DNA of 64,000 nucleotides from Candidatus Microgenomatus sp. (lineage in GTDB: Bacteria; Patescibacteriota; Microgenomatia; UBA8517), in assembly GCA_020724585.1 (NCBI GenBank), contig DYGS01000001.1, forward strand, positions 136,096 to 200,095, read 5' to 3'. The translations under genes and the position numbers were made by a program. How positions within the stretch are numbered: position 1 is the stretch's first letter; every line of letters begins with the position of its first letter. A model generated the notes under the pieces. That model did no database searches. It was not told the DNA's origin and was given only the letters and a program-made list of their open reading frames with translations. This document shows, piece after piece, positions 4,207 through 63,972 of the stretch.

Positions 4207-4302
4207 TTGATTTTTGGTGATAAAACCTATAAATATAAAACAATTCACACACTTTTAGAACTTCCTGCTATACTATAACTACGATTACTGTTTAAATTAA
4301 AT

Positions 4303-5352
4303 ATGGACAATACTGCCTTTCAAGAAATAGATGTACTTTCTTCAAAAATTTCAGGTTCTAGTATACCTGAAGATTTGTTAAAGTCGGTAAACATTCGTTT
4401 GGAACAATTAAAAAAATTAACAAATTCTCCCACTTTTTTACCCGAATATGACAGGATAAATAAATATATTGATTGGATTGTTTCGCTTCCTTGGGAGAAA
4501 AAGTCGCAAGACAACCTTGATTTGGAAAATGCCAAAAAAATATTAGATGAACATCACTATGGCTTGGAAGATATTAAAAATAGAGTCTTGGAATATCTTG
4601 CAGTCATGAAATTAAAACAGGAAAAAGGTGAAGGAAGCGATGTATATAGGGCACCAATCCTCTGCTTCGTGGGTTTAGTTGGAACCGGCAAGACAACAAT
4701 TGCTTATTCGATTGCAGAGGCTTTAGGGCGAAAAATTGCCCGCATTCCATTTGGAGGAATGGGAGATCCACTAGATCTTCGTGGACAATCAAAGATGCAT
4801 CCTGAAGCTGAACCGGGAAAAATTATTAAAGCCCTAAGAGATACTGGCTTTAGAAATTCTGTGATTCTTCTTGATGAAATAGACAGGGTCACAGACCAAG
4901 GTAGAGCCTCAATAATGGGTGTTTTGGTTGAACTTTTGGATCCCGGACAAAACCATGCTTTTACGGATCACTATATAGATTATCCAATAAATCTTTCGGA
5001 GTGTATTTTTATAGCAACTGCCAACAATACAACAAATATTTCAACTGCTGTGATGGACAGAATTGAGCCTATTATGATGCCTTCGTATACAGATCAGGAA
5101 AAAATTGTAATTGGGAAACAGTATGTTTTTCCCAAAGCTCTAAAATCATCGGGGCTTCCAGAAAATACGATTTCTATAGACGATGAGGTATGGGTAAATT
5201 TGGTAAGGCCATTGGGATACGATGCTGGTATCCGTACAATGGAGAGGACAATCGCAGGCTTGGTCAGGAAAGTTGCCAAAATGGTGGTTGAGGGCAAAGG
5301 AACCCACTTTGATGTAAACTCCCAAAATATAAAACAGTTTTTACCACAATAA
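4303..5352 (+). CDS. Lon-type AAA+ ATPase module without LAN N-domain and without protease domain
   Basis: 'LPWEKKSQDNLDLENAKKILDEHHYGLEDIKNRVLEYLAV' matches the Lon pre-AAA segment. Walker A GLVGTGKT, Walker B ILLDEID, sensor-1 TANN, Arg finger VMDRIEP, sensor-2 GIRTMER. The ORF stops where the Lon protease domain would begin. Confidence 0.8.
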   Translation: MDNTAFQEIDVLSSKISGSSIPEDLLKSVNIRLEQLKKLTNSPTFLPEYDRINKYIDWIVSLPWEKKSQDNLDLENAKKILDEHHYGLEDIKNRVLEYLAVMKLKQEKGEGSDVYRAPILCFVGLVGTGKTTIAYSIAEALGRKIARIPFGGMGDPLDLRGQSKMHPEAEPGKIIKALRDTGFRNSVILLDEIDRVTDQGRASIMGVLVELLDPGQNHAFTDHYIDYPINLSECIFIATANNTTNISTAVMDRIEPIMMPSYTDQEKIVIGKQYVFPKALKSSGLPENTISIDDEVWVNLVRPLGYDAGIRTMERTIAGLVRKVAKMVVEGKGTHFDVNSQNIKQFLPQ

Positions 5353-11881: not shown

Positions 11882-12115
11882 ATGGATATTCAAAGATTGT
11901 TAATAGTGGTTGTTATAAGTTTAACTGCTCTTTTGGTTGTGGTTGGGGTTCAAGTTGTGTTTATCATTTTGGACCTTAGAAAGGCAATAAAAAGATTAAA
12001 CTCAATTTTAGAAGATGCAATTTTAGGAGGAGGGCTTATTAGACCTGAAAAACTAACAGGCATAATGGAACTATTTGGAAAAAATAAAACAACAACAACC
12101 CACGGACAAGAATAA
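11882..12115 (+). CDS. small single-TM membrane protein, unknown function
   Basis: 'LLIVVVISLTALLVVVGVQVVFIIL' hydrophobic helix. Confidence 0.4.
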   Translation: MDIQRLLIVVVISLTALLVVVGVQVVFIILDLRKAIKRLNSILEDAILGGGLIRPEKLTGIMELFGKNKTTTTHGQE

Positions 12116-12116
12116 A

Positions 12117-12371
12117 TTAGTGTTTGTATGCATTTTGTCTGTGTTGGATTTTGTTTACTAAAATAATTAATTCTTTTTTCTTAAATTCATAAATAATTCT
12201 ATATGGCCATGCTCGAATGGTATAACTTCCGATTAGTTTTCCTGTAAGCGGTTTTCCTGAAAGGGGGTTTGATTCAATTGATTTTAATTTTTTAATAACC
12301 TTTTTTTGCTCTGATTTTGGAAGTTTAGAAAATTCTTTCTCTGAATCTTTTGTAAGTACTAATTGAGACAT
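12117..12371 (-). CDS. RelE/ParE-family type II toxin
   Basis: 84 aa with a RelE-like '...YRIIYEFKKKELIILVNKIQHRQNAY' C-terminus; overlaps the upstream Phd-like gene by 1 nt. Confidence 0.75.
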   Translation of the reverse strand: MSQLVLTKDSEKEFSKLPKSEQKKVIKKLKSIESNPLSGKPLTGKLIGSYTIRAWPYRIIYEFKKKELIILVNKIQHRQNAYKH

Positions 12372-12652
12372 TAATTAATGTTATACTTCTTGGTAAGGTT
12401 ATCAAGAGTTATGAAATTGCCTTTTTTGTAGTCTATTTGGGATTTTTTAATATCCCTCATGAGTTTTTTGTCACTTAATATTTCAAGTGTTTCCTCCCAG
12501 GCTTCAACATCTTCGATAGGCATAACAACCGCCCTAGTTTTACCCCTGTGTGTAATTATAAAACGGCGTAAATTATCTCCAACTTCTTCAAGAATTTGGT
12601 AAAAATTAGCACGAGCAATATTTGCAGGTAATGTTCCTGATAATACATTCAT
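12371..12652 (-). CDS. Phd/YefM-family antitoxin
   Basis: 'ARANFYQILEEVGDNLRRFIITHRGKTRAVVMPIEDVEAWEETLEIL' is the canonical Phd/YefM pattern. Confidence 0.8.
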   Translation of the reverse strand: MNVLSGTLPANIARANFYQILEEVGDNLRRFIITHRGKTRAVVMPIEDVEAWEETLEILSDKKLMRDIKKSQIDYKKGNFITLDNLTKKYNIN

Positions 12653-27004: not shown

Positions 27005-27016
27005 ACCTATAGTATT

Positions 27017-27259
27017 ATGTCGAAGATTGATATCCAGGGTTCACTTCCAGAAAGCCTTAAAGAATTCTACGCTGGACATAAAGACCATGGTAGGTTTGGT
27101 ATAATATTCGCCGGTAGGAGAAGAGGGTTTTTTGGAGATCCAATTAAACTTGGTTGTAGCAACTGTGCTGTTGGACCACATCCTGTAACTACTTCCGAAA
27201 CGATATTGCCAGATGAAGATTTAGTCATTGTAGCAAAAAACCTCCAAGAAGTTTGGTAG
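27017..27259 (+). CDS. hypothetical 80-aa ORF in the rpsG-fusA spacer (may be non-coding leader)
   Basis: ORF only. Contains an internal TGGTATAAT extended -10 box at about 27104-27112. Confidence 0.25.
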   Translation: MSKIDIQGSLPESLKEFYAGHKDHGRFGIIFAGRRRGFFGDPIKLGCSNCAVGPHPVTTSETILPDEDLVIVAKNLQEVW

Positions 27260-27324
27260 TAGTTATTGAATTAGTTTTCCACTCCTGCTACAATCACATT
27301 TGTCCTTCGATTTCGCTCAGGATT

Positions 27325-27352
27325 AAAACTCTTGATTTGGAGTTTTGTTTTG
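27325..27352 (+). terminator. AT-rich hairpin + T-run between rpsG and fusA (candidate attenuator)
   Basis: AAAACTC-ttgatttg-GAGTTTT followed by GTTTTG. Confidence 0.3.
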
Positions 27353-27370
27353 CTACTTACTAGTTCTTCA

Positions 27371-27405
27371 TTTAGAATTTAGCATTTAGCATTTGTAATT
27401 TTTAA
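27371..27405 (+). promoter_or_regulatory. 'TTTAGAATTTAGCATTTAGCATTTGTAATTTTT' leader motif 4 nt upstream of fusA (related to the motifs before rpsN and rpsM)
   Basis: Direct reading; tandem TTTAGCATT units. Confidence 0.35.
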
Positions 27406-27408
27406 GAT

Positions 27409-29577
27409 ATGGCTGAAGAGAAAACAAAGAAATCTGCAATGGTTATGACGGTCACAAAAGACCGTGTTGTCCCTTTGGATAAAATTAGAAATATTGGAAT
27501 TATTGCCCATATCGATGCAGGCAAAACAACAACAACCGAAAGACTTCTTTATGAAACAGGCAGAACTTATAAATTAGGCTCAGTTGATGAAGGAACCACA
27601 GTTACTGACTGGATGGCTCAGGAAAGAGAAAGAGGAATAACAATAGTTTCCGCGGCAATTACTGCCTTTTGGGAGCTTAAAAAAACCACATCAGTTGAAG
27701 AAGGGAAATATAGAATTAACTTAATAGATACCCCGGGCCATATTGATTTTACAGCTGAAGTTGAAAGGTCTCTTCGTGTTCTTGATGGAGCCTTGATGGT
27801 CTTCGACGGAAGAACTGGAGTTGAAAGCCAATCTGAAACTGTTTGGAGGCAAGCTGATAAATACAATGTTCCAAGGATTTGCGTTTTGAATAAATTGAAT
27901 TTGATAGGTGCAGATTTTGACAAGTCAATTGCATCAATCAGGGAAAGATTGGGGGCCAATGCGTCGCCGGTAATTTATCCAATCGGCCAAGAACATGCCC
28001 ATAGGGGTGTTATTGATTTAATTACAATGAAGGCTTTAAGTTATAAGGCCATTGAAGACCACGAGCTAATAGAAGAAGAAATTCCTGCTGACCTTTTAGA
28101 TATTGCCAAAAAATATAGAACAGAACTTATTGAAAAAGTTTCAGAATTTGATGATCAGGCTCTAGAATTCTATCTAAATGGGCAAGAACCCGACGAGACT
28201 GTTTTAAAGCGAGCTATTAGAAAAGGGGTAATTCTTGGTAAATTTTTCCCAATTTTTGGAGGAGACAATAGAACGGCGGAGAGCCAGCTTTTGTTGAATG
28301 GTGTTGTTGAATATTTACCTTCACCGATAGACTTATCTGCTGTTTCTGGTACCAATCCAAAAACAGGCGAAACTGAAGCAAGAGAAAGAAAAAATGAAGC
28401 TCCATTTTCCGGCCTTGCTTTTAAAGTTGTTACTGATCCTCATGTGGGTAGACTTGTTTATGTTAGGGTTTACTCAGGCAGTTTAAAAACTGGTCAAACT
28501 GTCTATAACTCCACGAAACAAATACAGGAAAGAATTGGAAAACTTGTTCTTTTGCATGCTGATCAAAGAGAACTTATAGAGGAAGCTTTTGCAGGTGAAA
28601 TTGTTGCTGTGGTTGGAGTTAAAGATACTTCAACAGGACATACCATTTGCGATCCTGCGCATCCGATTTATCTTGAGTCAATATCATTTCCTGAACCCGT
28701 TATCTCTCTTGCGATTGAACCTGCGACAAAATCTGATCAGGAAAAAATGGGTTTGGCTCTAAATAAACTTTCTGATGAAGATCCTACATTTAGAATAAAG
28801 ACCAATCATGAAACAGGGCAAACTATTATTTCGGGAATGGGAGAGCTCCAACTTGAAGTGTTGGTTGATAGAATGAAAAGAGAATTTAATGTAGTTGCAA
28901 CAACTGGTGCGCCTCAAGTTGCTTATAAAGAAACAATCAAGAAATATGCCGAGGGCGAAGGGAAGTATATAAGACAGACTGGGGGGCGTGGTCAATATGG
29001 ACACTGTTTCATCAAGGTTGAACCTAAAGGTAGAGGGGAAGGATTTGAATTTGTGAACCAAATTAAAGGTGGAGCAATTCCAGCTGAGTACATTCCTGCA
29101 ATTGAAAAAGGTGTTAAAGAAAAATTGGAGAATGGAATTCTTGCAGGTTTTCCAATGGTTGATATTAAAGTAATTGTTTACGATGGAACTTACCATGATG
29201 TTGATTCATCAGAAATGGCCTTTAAGATAGCGGGTTCTTTGGGTGTTGAAGATGCCATTAAAAAAGCTGAGATGACCCTTCTTGAACCTATCATGAAGGT
29301 TGAAGTCTTTACCCCTGCAGAATATATGGGGGATGTTATGGGTGACCTTTCAAGTAAAAGAGCACAAATTTCAGGAACCGAAGAAAAGATGGGAGAAACA
29401 GTTGTCTATGCAACTGCTCCTTTGGCTGAGCTTTCAGGATATGCAACGAAGTTAAGATCTCTAACCCAAGGTAGAGCAAGAGCCTTTATTGAGCCAAGTC
29501 ACTATGAAGAAGTTCCTCCACACATTGCAGCCCAAATCGTTGCCAAATCAGGCAAGACCGAAATGCCAAGAGGGTAA
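27409..29577 (+). CDS. fusA: elongation factor G
   Basis: 'GIIAHIDAGKTTTTERLL' (G1) and 'DTPGHIDF'; 722 aa. Confidence 0.97.
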   Translation: MAEEKTKKSAMVMTVTKDRVVPLDKIRNIGIIAHIDAGKTTTTERLLYETGRTYKLGSVDEGTTVTDWMAQERERGITIVSAAITAFWELKKTTSVEEGKYRINLIDTPGHIDFTAEVERSLRVLDGALMVFDGRTGVESQSETVWRQADKYNVPRICVLNKLNLIGADFDKSIASIRERLGANASPVIYPIGQEHAHRGVIDLITMKALSYKAIEDHELIEEEIPADLLDIAKKYRTELIEKVSEFDDQALEFYLNGQEPDETVLKRAIRKGVILGKFFPIFGGDNRTAESQLLLNGVVEYLPSPIDLSAVSGTNPKTGETEARERKNEAPFSGLAFKVVTDPHVGRLVYVRVYSGSLKTGQTVYNSTKQIQERIGKLVLLHADQRELIEEAFAGEIVAVVGVKDTSTGHTICDPAHPIYLESISFPEPVISLAIEPATKSDQEKMGLALNKLSDEDPTFRIKTNHETGQTIISGMGELQLEVLVDRMKREFNVVATTGAPQVAYKETIKKYAEGEGKYIRQTGGRGQYGHCFIKVEPKGRGEGFEFVNQIKGGAIPAEYIPAIEKGVKEKLENGILAGFPMVDIKVIVYDGTYHDVDSSEMAFKIAGSLGVEDAIKKAEMTLLEPIMKVEVFTPAEYMGDVMGDLSSKRAQISGTEEKMGETVVYATAPLAELSGYATKLRSLTQGRARAFIEPSHYEEVPPHIAAQIVAKSGKTEMPRG

Positions 29578-29636
29578 TTAGTCGCTTTGCTCCAATTATC
29601 AATTTCCAATTTACAATTTTCAAAAAATAAATCAGC

Positions 29637-29666
29637 GTGTCATTGCGAACTTTAGTGAAGCAATCT
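29637..29666. repeat. 30-nt element GTGTCATTGCGAAC-TTTA-GTGAAGCAATCT; second copy at 63944-63972
   Basis: 14-nt and 12-nt arms are identical between the two loci. Abuts the relE-like stop codon here and overlaps the secF stop at the other locus. Confidence 0.5.
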
Positions 29667-29668
29667 GT

Positions 29669-29929
29669 TTAACCTTTATAAATATCATGCGTTCCAGCTT
29701 TATGAAAAACAACTTCACCTTTATCTATAAAATCAAAGATAATTCTGTATTTACGATTGATTGAAAATGCCCAATAACCCTTTAATTTCCCAGTTAGTTT
29801 ATGAGTTTTGAGACTTGGAGCAAATGGTTCTTTCTTGAATAATTTTTCTTTTGGTTCTGACTCAATTTTTATAGCTTCAGGAAGCTTCTTGTAACTAGAA
29901 ATAAATTTATTTGTGTAATAAATTTTCAC
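29669..29929 (-). CDS. RelE/YafQ-family type II toxin (mRNA interferase)
   Basis: 86 aa; '...YWAFSINRKYRIIFDFIDKGEVVFHKAGTHDIY' is a RelE/YafQ-like C-terminus. Confidence 0.7.
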   Translation of the reverse strand: MKIYYTNKFISSYKKLPEAIKIESEPKEKLFKKEPFAPSLKTHKLTGKLKGYWAFSINRKYRIIFDFIDKGEVVFHKAGTHDIYKG

Positions 29930-29938
29930 TAATTAATA

Positions 29939-30163
29939 TTAGCGCAAATCTTTTAAAGAATTAAGTATTTTAAATCTTCCTGCTTTAAAATCAGCTCGAC
30001 TAGCTTTTAATTCTCTTAATAATTTTTCTTCTTTCCAAAATCGAAGAACATGCCTAAAGAATTCACTTTTGGTAGCAAAGTTGCCCAAAGTTACTTCAGT
30101 TTCAATTTCTTCAATCATAGGCTTTGGAAGTGATATATTTAATATTGCTCTCATATGTAACAC
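29939..30163 (-). CDS. ribbon-helix-helix (CopG/ParD-like) antitoxin
   Basis: N-terminal 'ILNISLPKPMIEEIE' is an RHH beta-strand + helix pattern; lies 9 nt upstream of the toxin on the same strand. Confidence 0.6.
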   Translation of the reverse strand: MLHMRAILNISLPKPMIEEIETEVTLGNFATKSEFFRHVLRFWKEEKLLRELKASRADFKAGRFKILNSLKDLR

Positions 30164-30221
30164 ATTGTATTACAGGTTATTACACATTGTCAACTGGAAA
30201 GTTGAGATGGCAAGGGGATAA

Positions 30222-30485
30222 TTATTTTCCAAGTTCCTTAGTTCCCACTTGTGATTTTATACATTCTTTATAAAAATCAGTAAAAGCATGGGCTAACTCT
30301 TTTAGTTCACCTGAAGCGTTTTCATCTTCTAGAATAGTTATAGCTTCTTGCTTCACTGTTTCTAAATCAAGTTCTTGATCAAAATATAAGTCAAAAAATT
30401 TATTGTGTGCTTCAAGCAAAGTGATTTCGTTTACCAAACTCTTTAACATGGTAGAATTATAGCATGTTTTTGGGTGTTGACACAC
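30222..30485 (-). CDS. hypothetical acidic small protein (likely starts at M13, 30449)
   Basis: ORF only; Glu/Asp-rich helical protein. Confidence 0.3.
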   Translation of the reverse strand: MCQHPKTCYNSTMLKSLVNEITLLEAHNKFFDLYFDQELDLETVKQEAITILEDENASGELKELAHAFTDFYKECIKSQVGTKELGK

Positions 30486-30506
30486 ATATTTAGCTTCGAA
30501 TATAAT
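30477..30506 (+). promoter_or_regulatory. consensus promoter TTGACA-18-TATAAT upstream of tuf
   Basis: TTGACA 30477-30482, TATAAT 30501-30506. Confidence 0.45.
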
Positions 30507-30515
30507 TTAAGAGTT

Positions 30516-30540
30516 GAGGCAAATTAGCCTCTTGTTTTTT
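30516..30540 (+). terminator. hairpin GAGGC-aaatta-GCCTC + TTGTTTTTT (intrinsic terminator / attenuator) immediately downstream of that promoter
   Basis: Direct reading; stem 30516-20 / 30527-31, T-run 30532-40. Confidence 0.45.
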
Positions 30541-30615
30541 GCCCATTCGGCAAGCTCAGGGTAAAAAAGTAATACTAGACATAAATATATTAAGCATTTA
30601 TAATACACAAATAAT

Positions 30616-31821
30616 ATGGCAGCCCAAGATACAAAACAAAAATTTGACAGAAGCAAACCCCATGTGAATATTGGTACTATTGGTCATGTCGATCATGGTA
30701 AAACTACTTTAACTGCGGCAATTACCACAGTTTTGGCTAAAAATTTCCCCGGTGGAGTTAATAAGGCTTATGCATTTGATCAAATTGATGCCGCTCCTGA
30801 AGAGAAACAAAGAGGAGTTACAATTAATATTTCTCATGTTGAATACGAGACAGATAAGAGGCATTATGCGCACATTGATGCTCCGGGTCATGCTGATTAC
30901 ATCAAAAACATGATTACTGGTGCGGCTCAAATGGACGGCGCGATTTTGGTTGTTTCTGCTCCAGATGGACCTATGCCTCAAACAAGAGAACATGTCATCC
31001 TGGCAAGACAGGTTAATGTTCCTTCCTTAATTGTTGCTTTAAATAAATGTGATGCTATGACTGATCCTGAGCTTTTGGATTTAGTTGAGGCTGATATTAG
31101 AGACTTACTTAAGAAATATCAGTTCCCAGGTGATGAGACGCCTATCGTTAGAGTCTCAGCATTGAAGGCATTGGAGGGAGATGTGGAAGCCGAAAAAGCT
31201 GTTTTAGAACTGATGAAGACAGCAGATTCATACATTCCTGATCCTGTAAGAGATACAGATAAGCCATTTTTGATGCCGGTTGAAGATGTCTTTTCAATTT
31301 CTGGTCGAGGCACAGTTGTTACCGGCCGTGTTGAAAGAGGATTATTGAAAGTCAATGAGGAAGTTGAAATTGTGGGAATAAACCCAACTCAAAAGACCGT
31401 TGTTACAGGGATTGAAATGTTTAAGAAACTTCTTGATGATGCTCAAGCGGGTGATAATGTTGGTGTTTTACTTCGAGGCATCGAAAAAAATCAAGTTGAA
31501 AGAGGTCAGGTTTTGGCCAAACCAAGTTCTGTCACTCCTCATACAGAATTTGAAGCTGAGGTTTATATACTTTCAAAAGATGAAGGAGGAAGGCATACAC
31601 CATTCTTTTCGGGCTACAAACCTCAATTCTTTATAAGAACAGCAGATGTTACAGGTGAGGTTAAGCTGGCGGAAGGCGTTGAGATGATTATGCCTGGCGA
31701 TAATGCAAAAATGACTGTAAAATTAATTGCTCCAGTTGCTATGGAGGAAGGTTTGAGATTTGCCATAAGAGAAGGCGGACACACAGTTGGTGCAGGTGTT
31801 ATAACCAAAATAATCGCTTAA
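30616..31821 (+). CDS. tuf: elongation factor Tu
   Basis: '[15 protein letters not shown]', 'DAPGHADY', 'NKCD'; 401 aa. Confidence 0.97.
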
Positions 31822-37541: not shown

Positions 37542-38086
37542 GTAGATTAAAAGAATATTACAACAGTAAAATAGTGCCAATTCTTATGGAAGAGTTTGGT
37601 ATAAAAAATAAGATGGGCGTGCCCAAACTTGTTAAAATCAATGTCAATGTTGGAATTGGTGACTTAACAAAAAATAAAGAGGGAAAGGAAAAATTGGAGC
37701 AGGATTTTAACAATATCTGCGGCCAAAAATTATCAGAAAGAAGAGCCAAGATTTCAGTTGCATCATTTTCAGTCAGGCAGGGGATGGTTGTTGGGCTGGG
37801 AGCAACATTAAGAAAGAACAGGATGTATGATTTTTTTGATAAATTTGTTAATATCGTTCTTCCAAGACTTAGAGATTTTAGAGGCGTTAAGGTTTCCGGT
37901 TTTGATAACTACGGAAACTACACGATTGGGCTAACGGATCATACCGTTTTTCCTGAAATTGATACATCAAAATCTGCTCCGGCGCATGGATTTGAGATTA
38001 CTTTTGTTACAAATGCTAAAGATCAGGAAAAAGGCAAAAGATTATTAGAATTATTAGGGATGCCCTTTAAGAAAAAAGATAAATGA
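37538..38086 (+). CDS. rplE: 50S ribosomal protein L5
   Basis: 'LKEYYNSKIVPILMEEFGIKNKMGVPKLVKINVNVG'. Confidence 0.97.
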   Translation: MSRLKEYYNSKIVPILMEEFGIKNKMGVPKLVKINVNVGIGDLTKNKEGKEKLEQDFNNICGQKLSERRAKISVASFSVRQGMVVGLGATLRKNRMYDFFDKFVNIVLPRLRDFRGVKVSGFDNYGNYTIGLTDHTVFPEIDTSKSAPAHGFEITFVTNAKDQEKGKRLLELLGMPFKKKDK

Positions 38087-38147
38087 TAAAAATGAAAATG
38101 ATAAACTATTTAGCATTTAGTTTTTTGAAATTTAGCATTTAACAATT
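38078..38147 (+). promoter_or_regulatory. conserved ~42-nt leader element GATAAATGATAAAAATGAAAATGATAAACTATTTAGCATTTAG plus a second TTTAGCATTT, ending at the rpsN ATG; near-identical copy before rpsM
   Basis: Direct comparison with 43522-43563 (~93% identity, two 1-nt indels). Confidence 0.45.
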
Positions 38148-38333
38148 ATGGCAAAAATATCAAAAATTGTAAGAGAAACAAAAAAACTAAAATATAAAGT
38201 GCGCTACCGCAACAGGTGCAGAATCTGCGGCAGGTCAAGGGGATATATCAGAAAATATGGGATCTGCAGATTATGTTTTAGAAGTCAGGCTTTGGCTGGA
38301 AATTTGCCTGGGGTTAGAAAGGCAAGCTGGTAA
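38148..38333 (+). CDS. rpsN: 30S ribosomal protein S14, Zn-ribbon type (type Z)
   Basis: 61 aa; '[22 protein letters not shown]'. Confidence 0.95.
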
Positions 38334-40478: not shown

Positions 40479-41758
40479 TGTTTGACAAAATTGCCCAGTT
40501 TTTTAAAAAAGTAATTACACATAGAGCTTTAAGAAGAAAAATCTTAATAGTTGCCCTGGTTTTGGTTGTTTTTAGAATAGCTTCTCACATACCTGCGGCA
40601 GGGGTTGATAGAGAAAGTTTATCAGCTCTGTTTTTAGGAAGCCCGTTACTGTCGCTTCTTGATATCTTTTCAGGTGGAACTCTGGCCAATTTTTCAATTA
40701 TGGCGCTGGGGCTAAACCCTTATATAAATGCTTCAATTATAATGCAGATTTTAAGCTATGTTATTCCTTCGCTTGAAGAACTGCAAAAAGAAGGTGAGTA
40801 CGGACAGGAAAAAATAAATATGTACACAAGATATTTGACCGTCCCTCTGGCTGTTATGCAGAGCTTCGGAATGTACGCCTTATTAAAATCCCAATCAATA
40901 ATTTCCAATTTACAGTTTTTTGATTTGATGCTTTTGTGTTTAACAATGACAGCGGGTACGATGTTTGCTGTTTGGCTTGGAGACTTAATTACCGAATATG
41001 CATTTAAAAATGGCGTATCTTTCTTAATTTTTATAGGTATCGTTTCAAGATTGCCTGTTGTTATTGGTCAAACTTATTCAACATTTGATGCGCAAGATAT
41101 ATTTAAATATTTAATTTTTGCAATTTTGGCAATTGTTATTATGGGAACAATTATATTTTTTAATGAGGCAATTAGAAAAATACCAATAAGTTATGCCAAA
41201 CAAACAAGCGGTTTAAGACAAAATCAATCATACCTGCCCTTAAGACTGAATCAGGCAGGGGTGATCCCTATAATTTTTGCAGTATCTTTGGTTTTAATGC
41301 CCTCAATGATTGTTCAGTTTTTAGGTTCATCCGGCAATGAGGCAATAACAAATTTAGCCTTAAATATTCAAAAATATCTTGATCCTAATTCATTTTTCTA
41401 TAATTTAATTTATTTCTTACTCGTTTTAGGATTTACATATTTTTACACATCTGTTGTTTTTAATCCGGAAAAAATATCTGAGAATTTGCAGAAATCGGGC
41501 GGATTTATTCCTGGAATCAGGCCTGGGCAATCAACCATTAAATATTTAAGCTTTGTGTTAAATAGAATTACGCTGGTTGGGGCAAGTTTTCTGGGAGCAG
41601 TAGCCGTTCTTCCATCGATTTTCCAAAACACAATTGGAATTGCCAACTTAGCAATTGGCGGGACGGGGCTTCTAATTGCAATATCTGTGGTTTTGGAGAT
41701 TATTAGGGAAATTGAGGGAGAGATGGTTATGACAAAATACGAGATTTATACAAGATGA
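40478..41758 (+). CDS. secY: preprotein translocase subunit SecY
   Basis: 10-TM protein; 'ALGLNPYINASIIMQIL'; placed after rplO. Confidence 0.97.
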   Translation: MFDKIAQFFKKVITHRALRRKILIVALVLVVFRIASHIPAAGVDRESLSALFLGSPLLSLLDIFSGGTLANFSIMALGLNPYINASIIMQILSYVIPSLEELQKEGEYGQEKINMYTRYLTVPLAVMQSFGMYALLKSQSIISNLQFFDLMLLCLTMTAGTMFAVWLGDLITEYAFKNGVSFLIFIGIVSRLPVVIGQTYSTFDAQDIFKYLIFAILAIVIMGTIIFFNEAIRKIPISYAKQTSGLRQNQSYLPLRLNQAGVIPIIFAVSLVLMPSMIVQFLGSSGNEAITNLALNIQKYLDPNSFFYNLIYFLLVLGFTYFYTSVVFNPEKISENLQKSGGFIPGIRPGQSTIKYLSFVLNRITLVGASFLGAVAVLPSIFQNTIGIANLAIGGTGLLIAISVVLEIIREIEGEMVMTKYEIYTR

Positions 41759-43511: not shown

Positions 43512-43521
43512 AGTCTGATAA

Positions 43522-43569
43522 GATAAATGATTAAAAAGAAAATGATAAATTATTTAGCATTTAATATAT
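43522..43569 (+). promoter_or_regulatory. second copy of the conserved leader element (GATAAATGATTAAAAAGAAAATGATAAATTATTTAGCATTTAAT) ending at the rpsM ATG
   Basis: Aligned by eye to 38078-38119. Confidence 0.45.
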
Positions 43570-43977
43570 ATGGCAAGATTAGCTGGAATTGAGTTAAATG
43601 ATAATTGGAGAGTTGATTATGCTTTAACAAAAATAAAAGGCATTGGTTGGTCGTTATCCAAAAAGGTTTTGGACAGTTTAAAAATTGCCCATTCTACAAG
43701 AATTAAGGATGTTTCAGTTGAGAATTTGAACAAAATTGGTTCCGAGATAGAAAAATATCCAATAGAGGGAGAACTTTTAAGAAAAGTCAGAGCAAATATT
43801 GCTCGACTCCAGGCAATTATTTCTTATAGAGGCTTAAGACATGCAAAAGGATTACCTGTTAGAGGCCAAAGAACTAAAACAAACGCCAGAACCAAAAGAG
43901 GAAAGAGAAAGACTGTTGGTGCATTTAAGAAAGAAGTTTTGGCTAAGCAAAAAACGGCCGAAAACGCGAAAAAATAA
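43570..43977 (+). CDS. rpsM: 30S ribosomal protein S13
   Basis: 'MARLAGIELNDNWRVDYALTKIKGIG'. Confidence 0.97.
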   Translation: MARLAGIELNDNWRVDYALTKIKGIGWSLSKKVLDSLKIAHSTRIKDVSVENLNKIGSEIEKYPIEGELLRKVRANIARLQAIISYRGLRHAKGLPVRGQRTKTNARTKRGKRKTVGAFKKEVLAKQKTAENAKK

Positions 43978-63079: not shown

Positions 63080-63160
63080 ATACAAATATCAAATAAATAC
63101 AAATGCTCAATATTGGAAATTTGCGATTGGTTTATTGGTAATTATTTTTATTTATTGATT

Positions 63161-63964
63161 ATGAATTGGATGAAATACAAGTTATTATATTTGACGATAT
63201 CCTTGGTTTTTATATCATCGGGATTATACAGTCTCTTCAAGTGGGGGCTAAGTTTGTCAATTGATTTTACTGGAGGAGTAAAGGCTGTTTATAAACTTGA
63301 AAATGGAGAGATTTTAAACATAAAAGAGGGGATAAAGACAATTCAGGAGGTGGATAAAATCAGAAATGAGTATAAGTCAAAAGGAGCAATTGAAGAGGTT
63401 TTTGAGGTGGTTGGACCTTCAATTGGCCCAGAGCTTATAAAAAAGACATATTATGCTGTTGGTATTTCAACTGTCCTTATTTTACTTTGGATTACAGTTC
63501 AATTTAGAAGTGTAAAATTTGGAATTTCTGCTGTTCTTGCTATGCTTCACGATATGTTGGTACTGATTGGATCATTTTCATTATTTGGCCATTTTCTTAA
63601 TGCTGAGATTGATTTTCTTTTTGTAACTGCAGTATTAACCACCCTTTCGTTTTCAGTTCACGACACAATTGTAGTTTTTGACAGAATTAGAGAAAAATTG
63701 AAATTATCGTCAACTGAAAACTTGGAGCTTATAGCAAATCAGGCGATTACAGAAACAATGGTTAGATCAGTCAATAACTCATTAACTATAATTTTTATGC
63801 TTTTATCTCTGATTCTTTTGGGTGGGGAGACAATTAAATGGTTTGGTTTAGCCCTTTTAATAGGGACAGTTTCAGGAACTTACTCATCTCCATTTGTTGC
63901 AATCCCATTTCTTGTTACATGGGAATACATACAGAAAAAATATGTGTCATTGCGAACAAAGTGA
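63161..63964 (+). CDS. secF: protein translocase subunit SecF
   Basis: 'LSLSIDFTGG'; 6-TM protein. ATG 63161 or 63170 is preferred; the track start 63113 is a TTG. Confidence 0.9.
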   Translation: MNWMKYKLLYLTISLVFISSGLYSLFKWGLSLSIDFTGGVKAVYKLENGEILNIKEGIKTIQEVDKIRNEYKSKGAIEEVFEVVGPSIGPELIKKTYYAVGISTVLILLWITVQFRSVKFGISAVLAMLHDMLVLIGSFSLFGHFLNAEIDFLFVTAVLTTLSFSVHDTIVVFDRIREKLKLSSTENLELIANQAITETMVRSVNNSLTIIFMLLSLILLGGETIKWFGLALLIGTVSGTYSSPFVAIPFLVTWEYIQKKYVSLRTK

Positions 63965-63972
63965 AGCAATCT
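63944..63972. repeat. second copy of the 30-nt element (GTGTCATTGCGAAC-AAA-GTGAAGCAATCT), overlapping the secF stop codon
   Basis: Matches 29637-29666 except for the central 3-4 nt. Confidence 0.5.

Follow-up and report, generated by a model that had tools for sequence, protein, structure and literature searches.

What is a toxin–antitoxin (TA) module doing on the opposite strand between fusA and tuf, the genes for elongation factors G and Tu (EF-G and EF-Tu), and how did it come to be there? The question is raised by a stretch of 64,000 nucleotides of contig DYGS01000001.1 from Candidatus Microgenomatus sp. (hereafter the window, whose numbering we use; L-numbers denote related loci compared with it), in which the fusA–tuf spacer is 1038 nt long and holds open reading frames (ORFs) for a RelE-type toxin, a ribbon–helix–helix (RHH) antitoxin and an acidic ORFan (Table 1). 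All three lie on the minus strand and stand out because nearly all remaining genes of the window are on the plus strand. The coordinates confirm the preliminary description of this DNA, which had placed fusA and tuf 1.04 kb apart with three minus-strand genes between them. The GC content of the cassette is 0.30 against 0.39–0.40 in its flanks, and the closest EF-G matches come from metagenome-assembled genomes of Woesebacteria (Candidate Phyla Radiation, CPR/Patescibacteria). Since the cassette region is 100% identical in a 644-kb JGI contig (Ga0246236_1000003) as well as in two Logan assemblies made independently from other runs, an assembly artefact is excluded. Taken as a whole, the locus is likely to represent an intact TA module, placed antisense in a permissive gap, that entered by an old Campbell-type event and has since been inherited mostly vertically.

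By sequence and structure model, the module is real and intact, an ordinary TA operon of the type II RelE/RHH kind. The toxin scores 34.4 bits against NCBIfam TIGR02385 (RelE/StbE; cutoff 27.9) and 27.8 bits against the Pfam HigB-like family (cutoff 27). An AlphaFold (AF2) model built on the homologue alignment reaches a predicted local distance difference test score (pLDDT) of 95.2 and a predicted template modelling score (pTM) of 0.84; its secondary structure elements follow the order E-H-H-E-E-E-H, in which the beta-alpha-alpha-beta-beta-beta arrangement of the RelE microbial-RNase fold is found. All 45 Foldseek matches in the PDB with E ≤ 1e-3 are RelE-superfamily toxins (TM 0.7–0.78), the best being YafQ, YoeB, RelK, HigB and RelE at a probability of 1.0. 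Across an alignment of 41 homologues, 14 positions are invariant, among them H43, R62, H81 and Y84, and K41, K50 and H76 are nearly so; the motif AGTHDIY is a candidate counterpart of the His-containing C-terminal motif of YafQ. The toxin can thus be assigned to the RelE/YafQ type, as the preliminary description had proposed, and would be a putative ribosome-dependent mRNA endonuclease. The family is already known and is annotated as RelE/StbE in public records.

The same description had named an RHH protein as the partner, and the antitoxin indeed matches Pfam RHH_1 over residues 8–46 (21.5 bits, cutoff 20.5), with a weak match only to the ParD family TIGR02606; its homologues form at least 356 clusters, many of them annotated as Arc/MetJ RHH proteins. 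The antitoxin gene lies upstream of the toxin gene at a distance of 9 nt and adjoins it in every related locus examined, and the toxin begins at a weak GTG without a Shine–Dalgarno sequence. The operon promoter has the form TTGACA-18-TACAAT, and because its −10 element ends 9 nt ahead of the antitoxin ATG, the leader of the mRNA is predicted to be very short or absent. Its −10 and −35 elements are overlapped by a pair of ACACATTGT repeats with a spacing of 22 nt, and the whole promoter/operator block is kept in all TA-bearing relatives. The antitoxin probably represses its own consensus promoter through these putative operator repeats, and would neutralise the toxin. None of the three cassette proteins is matched by a PADLOC model.

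The age of the module at this site is best judged from its relatives. At least five further lineages of Woesebacteria, with an EF-G 79–91% identical to that of the window, carry the same TA in antisense orientation in the fusA–tuf spacer. Identities to the window for EF-G, toxin and antitoxin, respectively, are 91, 91 and 92% in L100; 90, 86 and 74% in L088; 87, 56 and 76% in L102–L105; 79, 87 and 56% in L084–L087; and 80, 79 and 58% in L089. In the closest cassette-free genomes (L001–L004; EF-G 79–85% identical) the fusA–tuf spacer measures 44–101 nt and retains no trace of the three genes, so the cassette is an insertion relative to them, as had been proposed; a one-off event it is not, because several related species carry this TA at this position, with a divergence that matches the flanks. 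An EF-G tree resolves two subclades, each with both empty and TA-bearing genomes, and in the toxin tree all fusA–tuf toxins except that of L103, a long-branch outlier, form one group that is split like the EF-G tree. The toxin of L092, a short contig without detectable fusA, falls within this group. Toxins that are 74% identical or less sit elsewhere, for example beside restriction-modification genes, and a metagenome scan with the toxin recovered 9 loci only, none with fusA or tuf.

Synonymous divergence (dS) of the toxin follows that of its neighbours: 1.73 versus 1.77 for fusA between the window and L084, 1.21 versus 1.21 between the window and L100, and 0.71 versus 0.75 for fusA and 0.54 for tuf between L084 and L089. 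The dN/dS ratio of the toxin is 0.04–0.12, over a dS of 0.7 or more. Together with the agreement of the trees, these values imply that the TA is old at the site, mostly vertically inherited and under purifying selection. Recent horizontal transfer, suggested by a toxin more conserved than EF-Tu, was rejected because toxin dS matches flank dS; the high protein identity of the toxin therefore reflects purifying selection. The preliminary description had held that spacer content universal in the clade as an ancestral trait would speak against an insertion. This applies by half: the TA is old and shared, but its distribution is patchy. In L102/L103, the toxin (4235–4492) appears either swapped or very fast-evolving within an otherwise syntenic module whose EF-G is 87% identical to that of the window.

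Why this position tolerates a module becomes clearer from the promoter of tuf. The preliminary description had tuf acquiring a promoter of its own at the cassette, a view contradicted by a nine-locus alignment, in which both P1 hexamers (TTGACA and TATAAT) are invariant and four of the loci are cassette-free; in the latter (L001–L004), TTGACA-17/18-TATAAT follows directly after the fusA stop. The tuf promoter is therefore ancestral and predates the insertion. The cassette sits exactly from the fusA stop to this promoter, and the TA would occupy the only permissive place of the gene cluster, a gap of ~10 nt between the fusA stop and the tuf promoter. Because the TA lies outside the ancestral, independent promoter, tuf expression should be undisturbed. 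A GC-rich hairpin with a T-run follows the promoter in eight of the nine aligned loci, including three of the four cassette-free ones. It is kept in L001–L003, L084, L088, L089 and L100, with compensatory stems between the subclades (GAGGC/GCCTC versus AGGGC/GCCCT); in the leaders of the window, L001–L003, L084, L088, L089, L100 and L103 it lies within ~10 nt of the P1 −10. Its probable role is that of an ancestral end point for read-through from fusA, or else of a leader element. As part of a conserved leader architecture, a second TATAAT stands 6–11 nt ahead of the tuf ATG, without a Shine–Dalgarno sequence, and TATAAT-ACAC...ATG recurs at tuf in L004, L088, L100 and L103. This arrangement suggests a terminator set behind the promoter and a leaderless or nearly leaderless tuf mRNA.

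The manner of entry is indicated by duplicated target sequences. Directly after the TA promoter lies a second copy of the fusA 3′ end, AAAGTTGAGATGGCAAGGGGATAA, with an alignment that reaches ~30193 (24–29 nt) and an encoded end, KVEMARG-stop, that is closer to the C-terminus of fusA in the clade than the present KTEMPRG. A degenerate fusA-end pattern finds two matches in the 64 kb, the true end (2 mismatches) and this remnant (0), where 0.01 are expected. Equivalent remnants occur in L088 and L089 (30/35 matches each; 0/200 shuffles as good); matches of the own fusA end in L084 and L085 lie inside the toxin gene and were set aside as probably due to chance, and the same search in L100 found none. 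The region of the tuf −35, TTGGGTGTTGAC, is present twice in L088, and one copy abuts the toxin stop, with the sequence TTTGGGTGTTGACAC there and a near-identical TTTAGGTGTTGACAC in L103. Direct repeats of the target together with scar-free empty sites (L001–L004), as expected for an att-type duplication, are thus both found. The order that can be deduced is fusA end (1), gap X, tuf −35 (1), toxin←antitoxin, fusA end (2), gap Y, tuf −35 (2) and tuf. Gaps X and Y hold the 91-nt filler and the 75-aa ORFan in the window, 74-, 85- and 225-aa ORFs in L088, 151- and 79-aa ORFs in L103, an 88-aa ORF in L100, and a 56-aa ORF plus a 118- or 106-aa ORF in L085 and L089, nearly all of them without a family match. 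Since X and Y differ in every lineage, the gap is a hot spot for small ORFans.

In the scenario that we propose, a circular element bringing the TA would have recombined with the chromosome in an ancestor of this Woesebacteria subgroup, by a single crossover within a shared segment of ~50 nt that takes in the final ~30 nt of fusA and extends to the tuf −35. The crossover would have duplicated the target segment on both sides of the TA, with the window keeping the fusA-end copy at 30198–30221 and L088 and L103 additionally keeping the −35 copy. Thereafter the TA would have passed mostly vertically under purifying selection, while both copies of the permissive gap would have gained unrelated small ORFans or filler, lineage by lineage. 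Recombination between the repeats could excise the TA without a scar, which would explain the clean empty relatives.

The preliminary description implied a different history, in which a recent, strain-specific mobile insertion of three genes split the fusA–tuf operon and forced a new tuf promoter upon it. This is largely refuted and very improbable: absence from the four closest species-representative genomes (L001–L004), the low GC content and a TA family that is widespread, also in defence-island-like contexts, speak for such an insertion, but five or more other lineages share this TA and its position, with toxin dS close to that of the flanks, the tuf promoter is invariant in cassette-free relatives and the orphan is unlinked to the TA elsewhere. 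Equally hard to sustain is the view that the module no longer functions and is decaying, left over from a degraded mobile element and kept solely because its deletion is neutral or rare. The lack of mobile-element genes nearby, the unusually basic antitoxin and marginal Pfam scores fit decay, yet every lineage has both ORFs intact, the 14 invariant toxin positions include His, Arg and Tyr of the catalytic type, dN/dS is low over a considerable dS, the promoter/operator block is conserved and the toxin model is of very high confidence, so that we give this explanation hardly any weight.

A more serious competitor, if still a rather improbable one, is that the gap is a site-specific integration hot spot, with an att-like target from the fusA 3′ end to the tuf −35, that received several independent TA integrations; small cassettes with promoters of their own, the TA and the ORFans alike, would have been captured there again and again and exchanged between lineages. 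TA-bearing genomes are nested among clean empty sites in both subclades, and by parsimony two gains stand against a single gain followed by three or more losses. Sequences at the boundaries are duplicated, the fusA-end junction lies ~29 nt before the stop in clade A and differs in clade B, the ORFans on either side of the TA differ in every lineage, the L103 toxin is apparently swapped, and between the window and L084 the toxin protein (86% identity) exceeds EF-G (79%) and EF-Tu (77%). Repeated arrival is contradicted by toxin subclades that mirror those of EF-G and by synonymous divergence that matches the flanks; moreover, no recombinase and no attC-like or other recognisable recombination site was found, and the two other TA modules near the region show no flanking target duplication.

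A single old entry with mostly vertical inheritance has to be held against several observations of its own, which weigh against it. No integrase or recombinase gene adjoins the cassette, and the mechanism of integration is deduced from the repeats only; none was found in the spacer or the neighbouring genes of the window, nor in L083 and L102–L103. The first −35 copy is unrecognisable in the window, L100, L084 and L089, and the fusA-end copy has decayed in L100 and L103 and lies elsewhere in clade B, after the 56-aa gene in L089. The dS values come close to saturation, which makes horizontal transfer from one subclade to the other possible at an early stage, and in L103 a toxin that is 56% identical beside an antitoxin that is 76% identical indicates that the module is not purely vertical. 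Toxins with 74% identity occur next to restriction-modification systems at other sites. As regards the module itself, the basic antitoxin (isoelectric point (pI) 10) is atypical for RelB-like antitoxins, and the match of the toxin to Pfam YafQ (29.7 bits) falls just below the cutoff of 30.

Transcription at the fusA side had been predicted to be convergent in the preliminary description, and this is plausible: no plus-strand terminator-like site is predicted from the fusA stop to 30516, and the nearest predicted minus-strand one lies inside fusA (29421–29394). The 91-nt filler is missing in L084, L089 and L100, where the fusA and toxin stops are 1–4 nt apart, so convergent, overlapping transcription is probably inherent in this layout; transcripts of fusA and of the TA would run towards each other and probably overlap. 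A structured RNA in the spacer was considered and rejected: an Rfam search of the spacer gave no match even at E ≤ 1, and the filler and the tuf leader fold no better than shuffled sequences. A bolder reading, which we regard as possible but unlikely, is that the ~50 nt from the fusA 3′ end to the tuf −35 act as an attachment site at which self-promoted mini-cassettes, the RelE/RHH TA together with a changing set of ORFans, accumulate and are exchanged without a linked integrase, with obligatory fusA-convergent transcription and with read-through from the str operon setting toxin and antitoxin expression.

The acidic orphan of 75 or 87 aa, reported earlier with the TA, is present with both starts and a pI of 4.6. 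That it forms one cassette with the two TA genes does not hold, since it is missing from every other TA-bearing fusA–tuf locus; these carry different ORFans, and the ORFan is thus unlinked to the TA. On the same ground, a role as third TA component was rejected, as it is not co-conserved. A word-indexed search of 5.8 billion proteins found no homologue, and an exhaustive HMMER scan of 1.8 billion representatives yielded a single credible one, P0123 (80 aa, 44–47% identity), in an unrelated context. The AF2 model has 4 helices (pLDDT 78) without a significant structural neighbour in the PDB, and there is no Pfam, NCBIfam or PADLOC match. The ORFan fills exactly the gap from the fusA-end remnant to the tuf −35; the −10 of its promoter-like site ends 6 nt ahead of the ATG, a leaderless-type arrangement, and the −35 lies back to back with that of tuf P1, overlapping it. 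It is probably a real ORFan gene.

Table 1 Features of the fusA–tuf region, of two further sites in the window and of the spacer ORFs in distant CPR loci. Positions are those of the window unless a locus is named.
Feature	Position	Strand	Basis or remark
fusA (EF-G, 722 aa)	27409–29577	+	ORF list, Pfam families
fusA 3′ end, copy 1 (...KTEMPRG-stop)	29554–29577	+	Last 24 nt of fusA; degenerate fusA-end pattern, 2 mismatches
AT-rich filler, 91 nt, between convergent fusA and toxin stops	29578–29668		Spacer sequence
30-nt element GTGTCATTGCGAACTTTAGTGAAGCAATCT, abutting toxin stop	29636–29668	+	2 matches, 0.00 expected
Toxin, RelE/YafQ/YoeB fold, 86 aa, pI 9.8, GTG start	29669–29929	−	TIGR02385, AF2, Foldseek
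RHH (CopG/ParD-like) antitoxin, 71 aa (74 aa from GTG 30163)	29939–30154	−	Pfam RHH_1
TA promoter	30160–30193	−	−35 TTGACA 30193–30188, −10 TACAAT 30169–30164, 11/12 matches
Two ACACATTGT repeats, putative RHH operator	30160–30168 and 30182–30190	−	Overlap −10 and −35
fusA 3′-end remnant, copy 2 (...KVEMARG-stop)	30198–30221	+	fusA-end pattern, alignment
Acidic ORFan, 75 aa (87 aa from GTG 30485), pI 4.6	30222–30449	−	ORF list
ORFan promoter-like site GTGTCA-16-TGnTATAAT	30456–30483	−	Promoter scan
tuf promoter P1, TTGACA-18-TATAAT, 12/12 consensus	30477–30506	+	Promoter scan, alignment
Terminator-like hairpin and T-run downstream of P1	30516–30541	+	Prediction, conservation
Additional window hairpin TTTTTTGCCC...GGGTAAAAAA in tuf leader	30534–30567		
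Proximal promoter-like site P2, TAGACA-17-TATAAT	30576–30604	+	11 nt ahead of tuf ATG
tuf (EF-Tu, 401 aa)	30616–31821	+	ORF list, Pfam families
Second antisense TA, RelE/ParE-like toxin, 84 aa	12117–12371	−	
Second antisense TA, Phd/YefM antitoxin	12371–12652	−	Pfam, 53 bits
30-nt element, second copy, overlapping secF stop	63943–63972		Repeat search
Same-strand fusA–tuf ORF in distant CPR	L033 8126–8377; L040 8101–8409; L041 4403–4672		
Same-strand fusA–tuf ORF in distant CPR	L042 10797–11075; L044 5729–6010; L050 4686–5048		

At its fusA side the toxin gene is bordered by a 30-nt element (consensus GTGTCATTGCGAAC(TTT/AA)AGTGAAGCAATCT, with N2–3 between the halves) that, as previously noted, recurs at secF (63113–63964, a SecD_SecF_C protein); the two matches in the window compare with 0.00 expected. 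A third antisense TA of the RelE superfamily lies ~100 nt downstream of the secF copy, just past the window end (L106, 12118–12925), and consists of a Gp49/HigB-like protein of 115 aa and an HTH_3 protein of 98 aa. Each of the two copies is thus found where a core gene and a TA operon converge, in the gap before the 3′ end of the latter. The element has only two copies and a weak hairpin; it may serve as a terminator, mark the boundary of a cassette or be a small repeat. Another candidate, an AT-rich stretch of 29 nt in the filler (29592–29620), was rejected as the element: it matches 40891–40919 inside the secY coding sequence at 25/29 positions, more than the best of 300 random 29-mers (maximum 23), but is of low complexity, and the match is probably a coincidence. 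In the second antisense TA, the toxin stop is 1 nt from the stop of a plus-strand ORF (11882–12115), and the −10 of the promoter ends 6 nt ahead of the antitoxin ATG.

Further variation was seen in and around the cluster. In L085 (~1215–1290) and L089 (~4560–4630, both in window orientation and upstream of tuf P1), a GC-rich insert of ~55 nt (…CTTCGCTCAGGGCTTCGCGGGGCAGG…) has a duplicate of a −35-like sequence (GGGTGTTGAC / GGGATTGAC) on one side and the actual promoter of tuf on the other; we take it to be similar to short repeats common in CPR genomes. The rpsG–fusA gap is variable too, with an 80-aa ORFan (27017–27259, no Pfam match) in the window gap of 27005–27408, a 4.2-kb insert of five plus-strand genes in L004 (1767–6000), a 112-aa ORF in L103 (7289–7627) and an 81-aa ORF in L089. 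A motif of the ATTTAGCATTTAGCA type is repeated at 27353–27394, 38076–38169 and 43520–43591 (repeat D4: 44 nt, 93% identity), a short way upstream of where fusA and two further reading frames start, the latter at ~38148 and ~43570, and may be an internal promoter or regulatory motif. In distant CPR genomes of the Parcubacteria type (Portnoy-, Moran- and Falkowbacteria), the fusA–tuf spacer holds a conserved same-strand ORF of 83–120 aa, with an N-terminus of the form ...IIVENGKPxYVVMxxxEYExL followed by an acidic tail; given a weak match to Phd/YefM antitoxins (E = 0.003, below the cutoff), it may represent an antitoxin-like gene that stands alone within the str cluster.

How does the locus compare with known systems? 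With DinJ–YafQ, RelBE and YefM–YoeB it shares a basic RelE-fold toxin of ~86 aa (closest structures YafQ 9lew_B/4mmg, YoeB 2a6r, RelK 3oei and HigB), putatively equivalent conserved His, Arg and Tyr positions and an antitoxin gene upstream in a two-gene operon, and DinJ likewise has an RHH DNA-binding domain. It differs in that the toxin is only 18–23% identical to any solved toxin and starts at a GTG without a Shine–Dalgarno sequence, the antitoxin is a short (71 aa), basic protein whose start codon adjoins the promoter in a leaderless-type arrangement, and different species have kept the same chromosomal position, antisense in the fusA–tuf spacer. Chromosomal integron arrays hold TA cassettes as well, such as relBE, higBA and parDE in Vibrio superintegrons. 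Like these, the module is a small self-promoted TA among variable ORFans in a hypervariable spot, with a plausible role in stabilising adjoining DNA; unlike them, it has no recognised integrase, attI or attC at fusA–tuf, its repeats duplicate the target in the host (3′ end of fusA, −35 of tuf), and the array is flanked by two essential genes of translation. Integrative elements can also target the conserved 3′ end of a gene and restore the gene with a copy of their own, as at att sites of the tRNA/tmRNA type. The imperfect direct repeat of 24–35 nt of the target 3′ end on both sides of the insert, the upstream copy that completes fusA and the scar-free empty sites in relatives recall such elements, whereas the insert measures only ~0.6 kb and lacks an integrase, and the target is the end of a protein-coding gene plus the −35 of the next promoter.

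No specific report of a TA in the fusA–tuf spacer emerged from a literature search. What is unusual about the locus is the combination of a long-conserved site at the fusA end and tuf promoter, duplicated target sequences and a turnover of surrounding ORFans. In Gammaproteobacteria, insertions into concatenated translation operons have been argued to be tolerated only within a few nucleotides, from the last coding sequence to the following operon's promoter (Brandis et al. 2019, PMC6735719). The cassette occupies exactly such a stop-to-promoter gap; unlike those inter-operon gaps, however, this one lies inside the classical str operon, because tuf has its own promoter in this clade.

The most conserved bacterial gene cluster is porous in CPR genomes, but only over the few nucleotides that separate a stop codon from the promoter after it, and a TA module can stay at such a spot over long evolutionary time under purifying selection. 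For annotation, the locus advises caution, as a gene's own promoter beside an insertion may be ancestral. The duplicated fusA end offers a concrete model for how small promoter-bearing cassettes might enter and leave. Whether the three antisense RelE-superfamily TA modules within ~85 kb of a reduced genome serve phage defence, the stabilisation of DNA or a coupling to translation is the question that they pose for the biology of these organisms.

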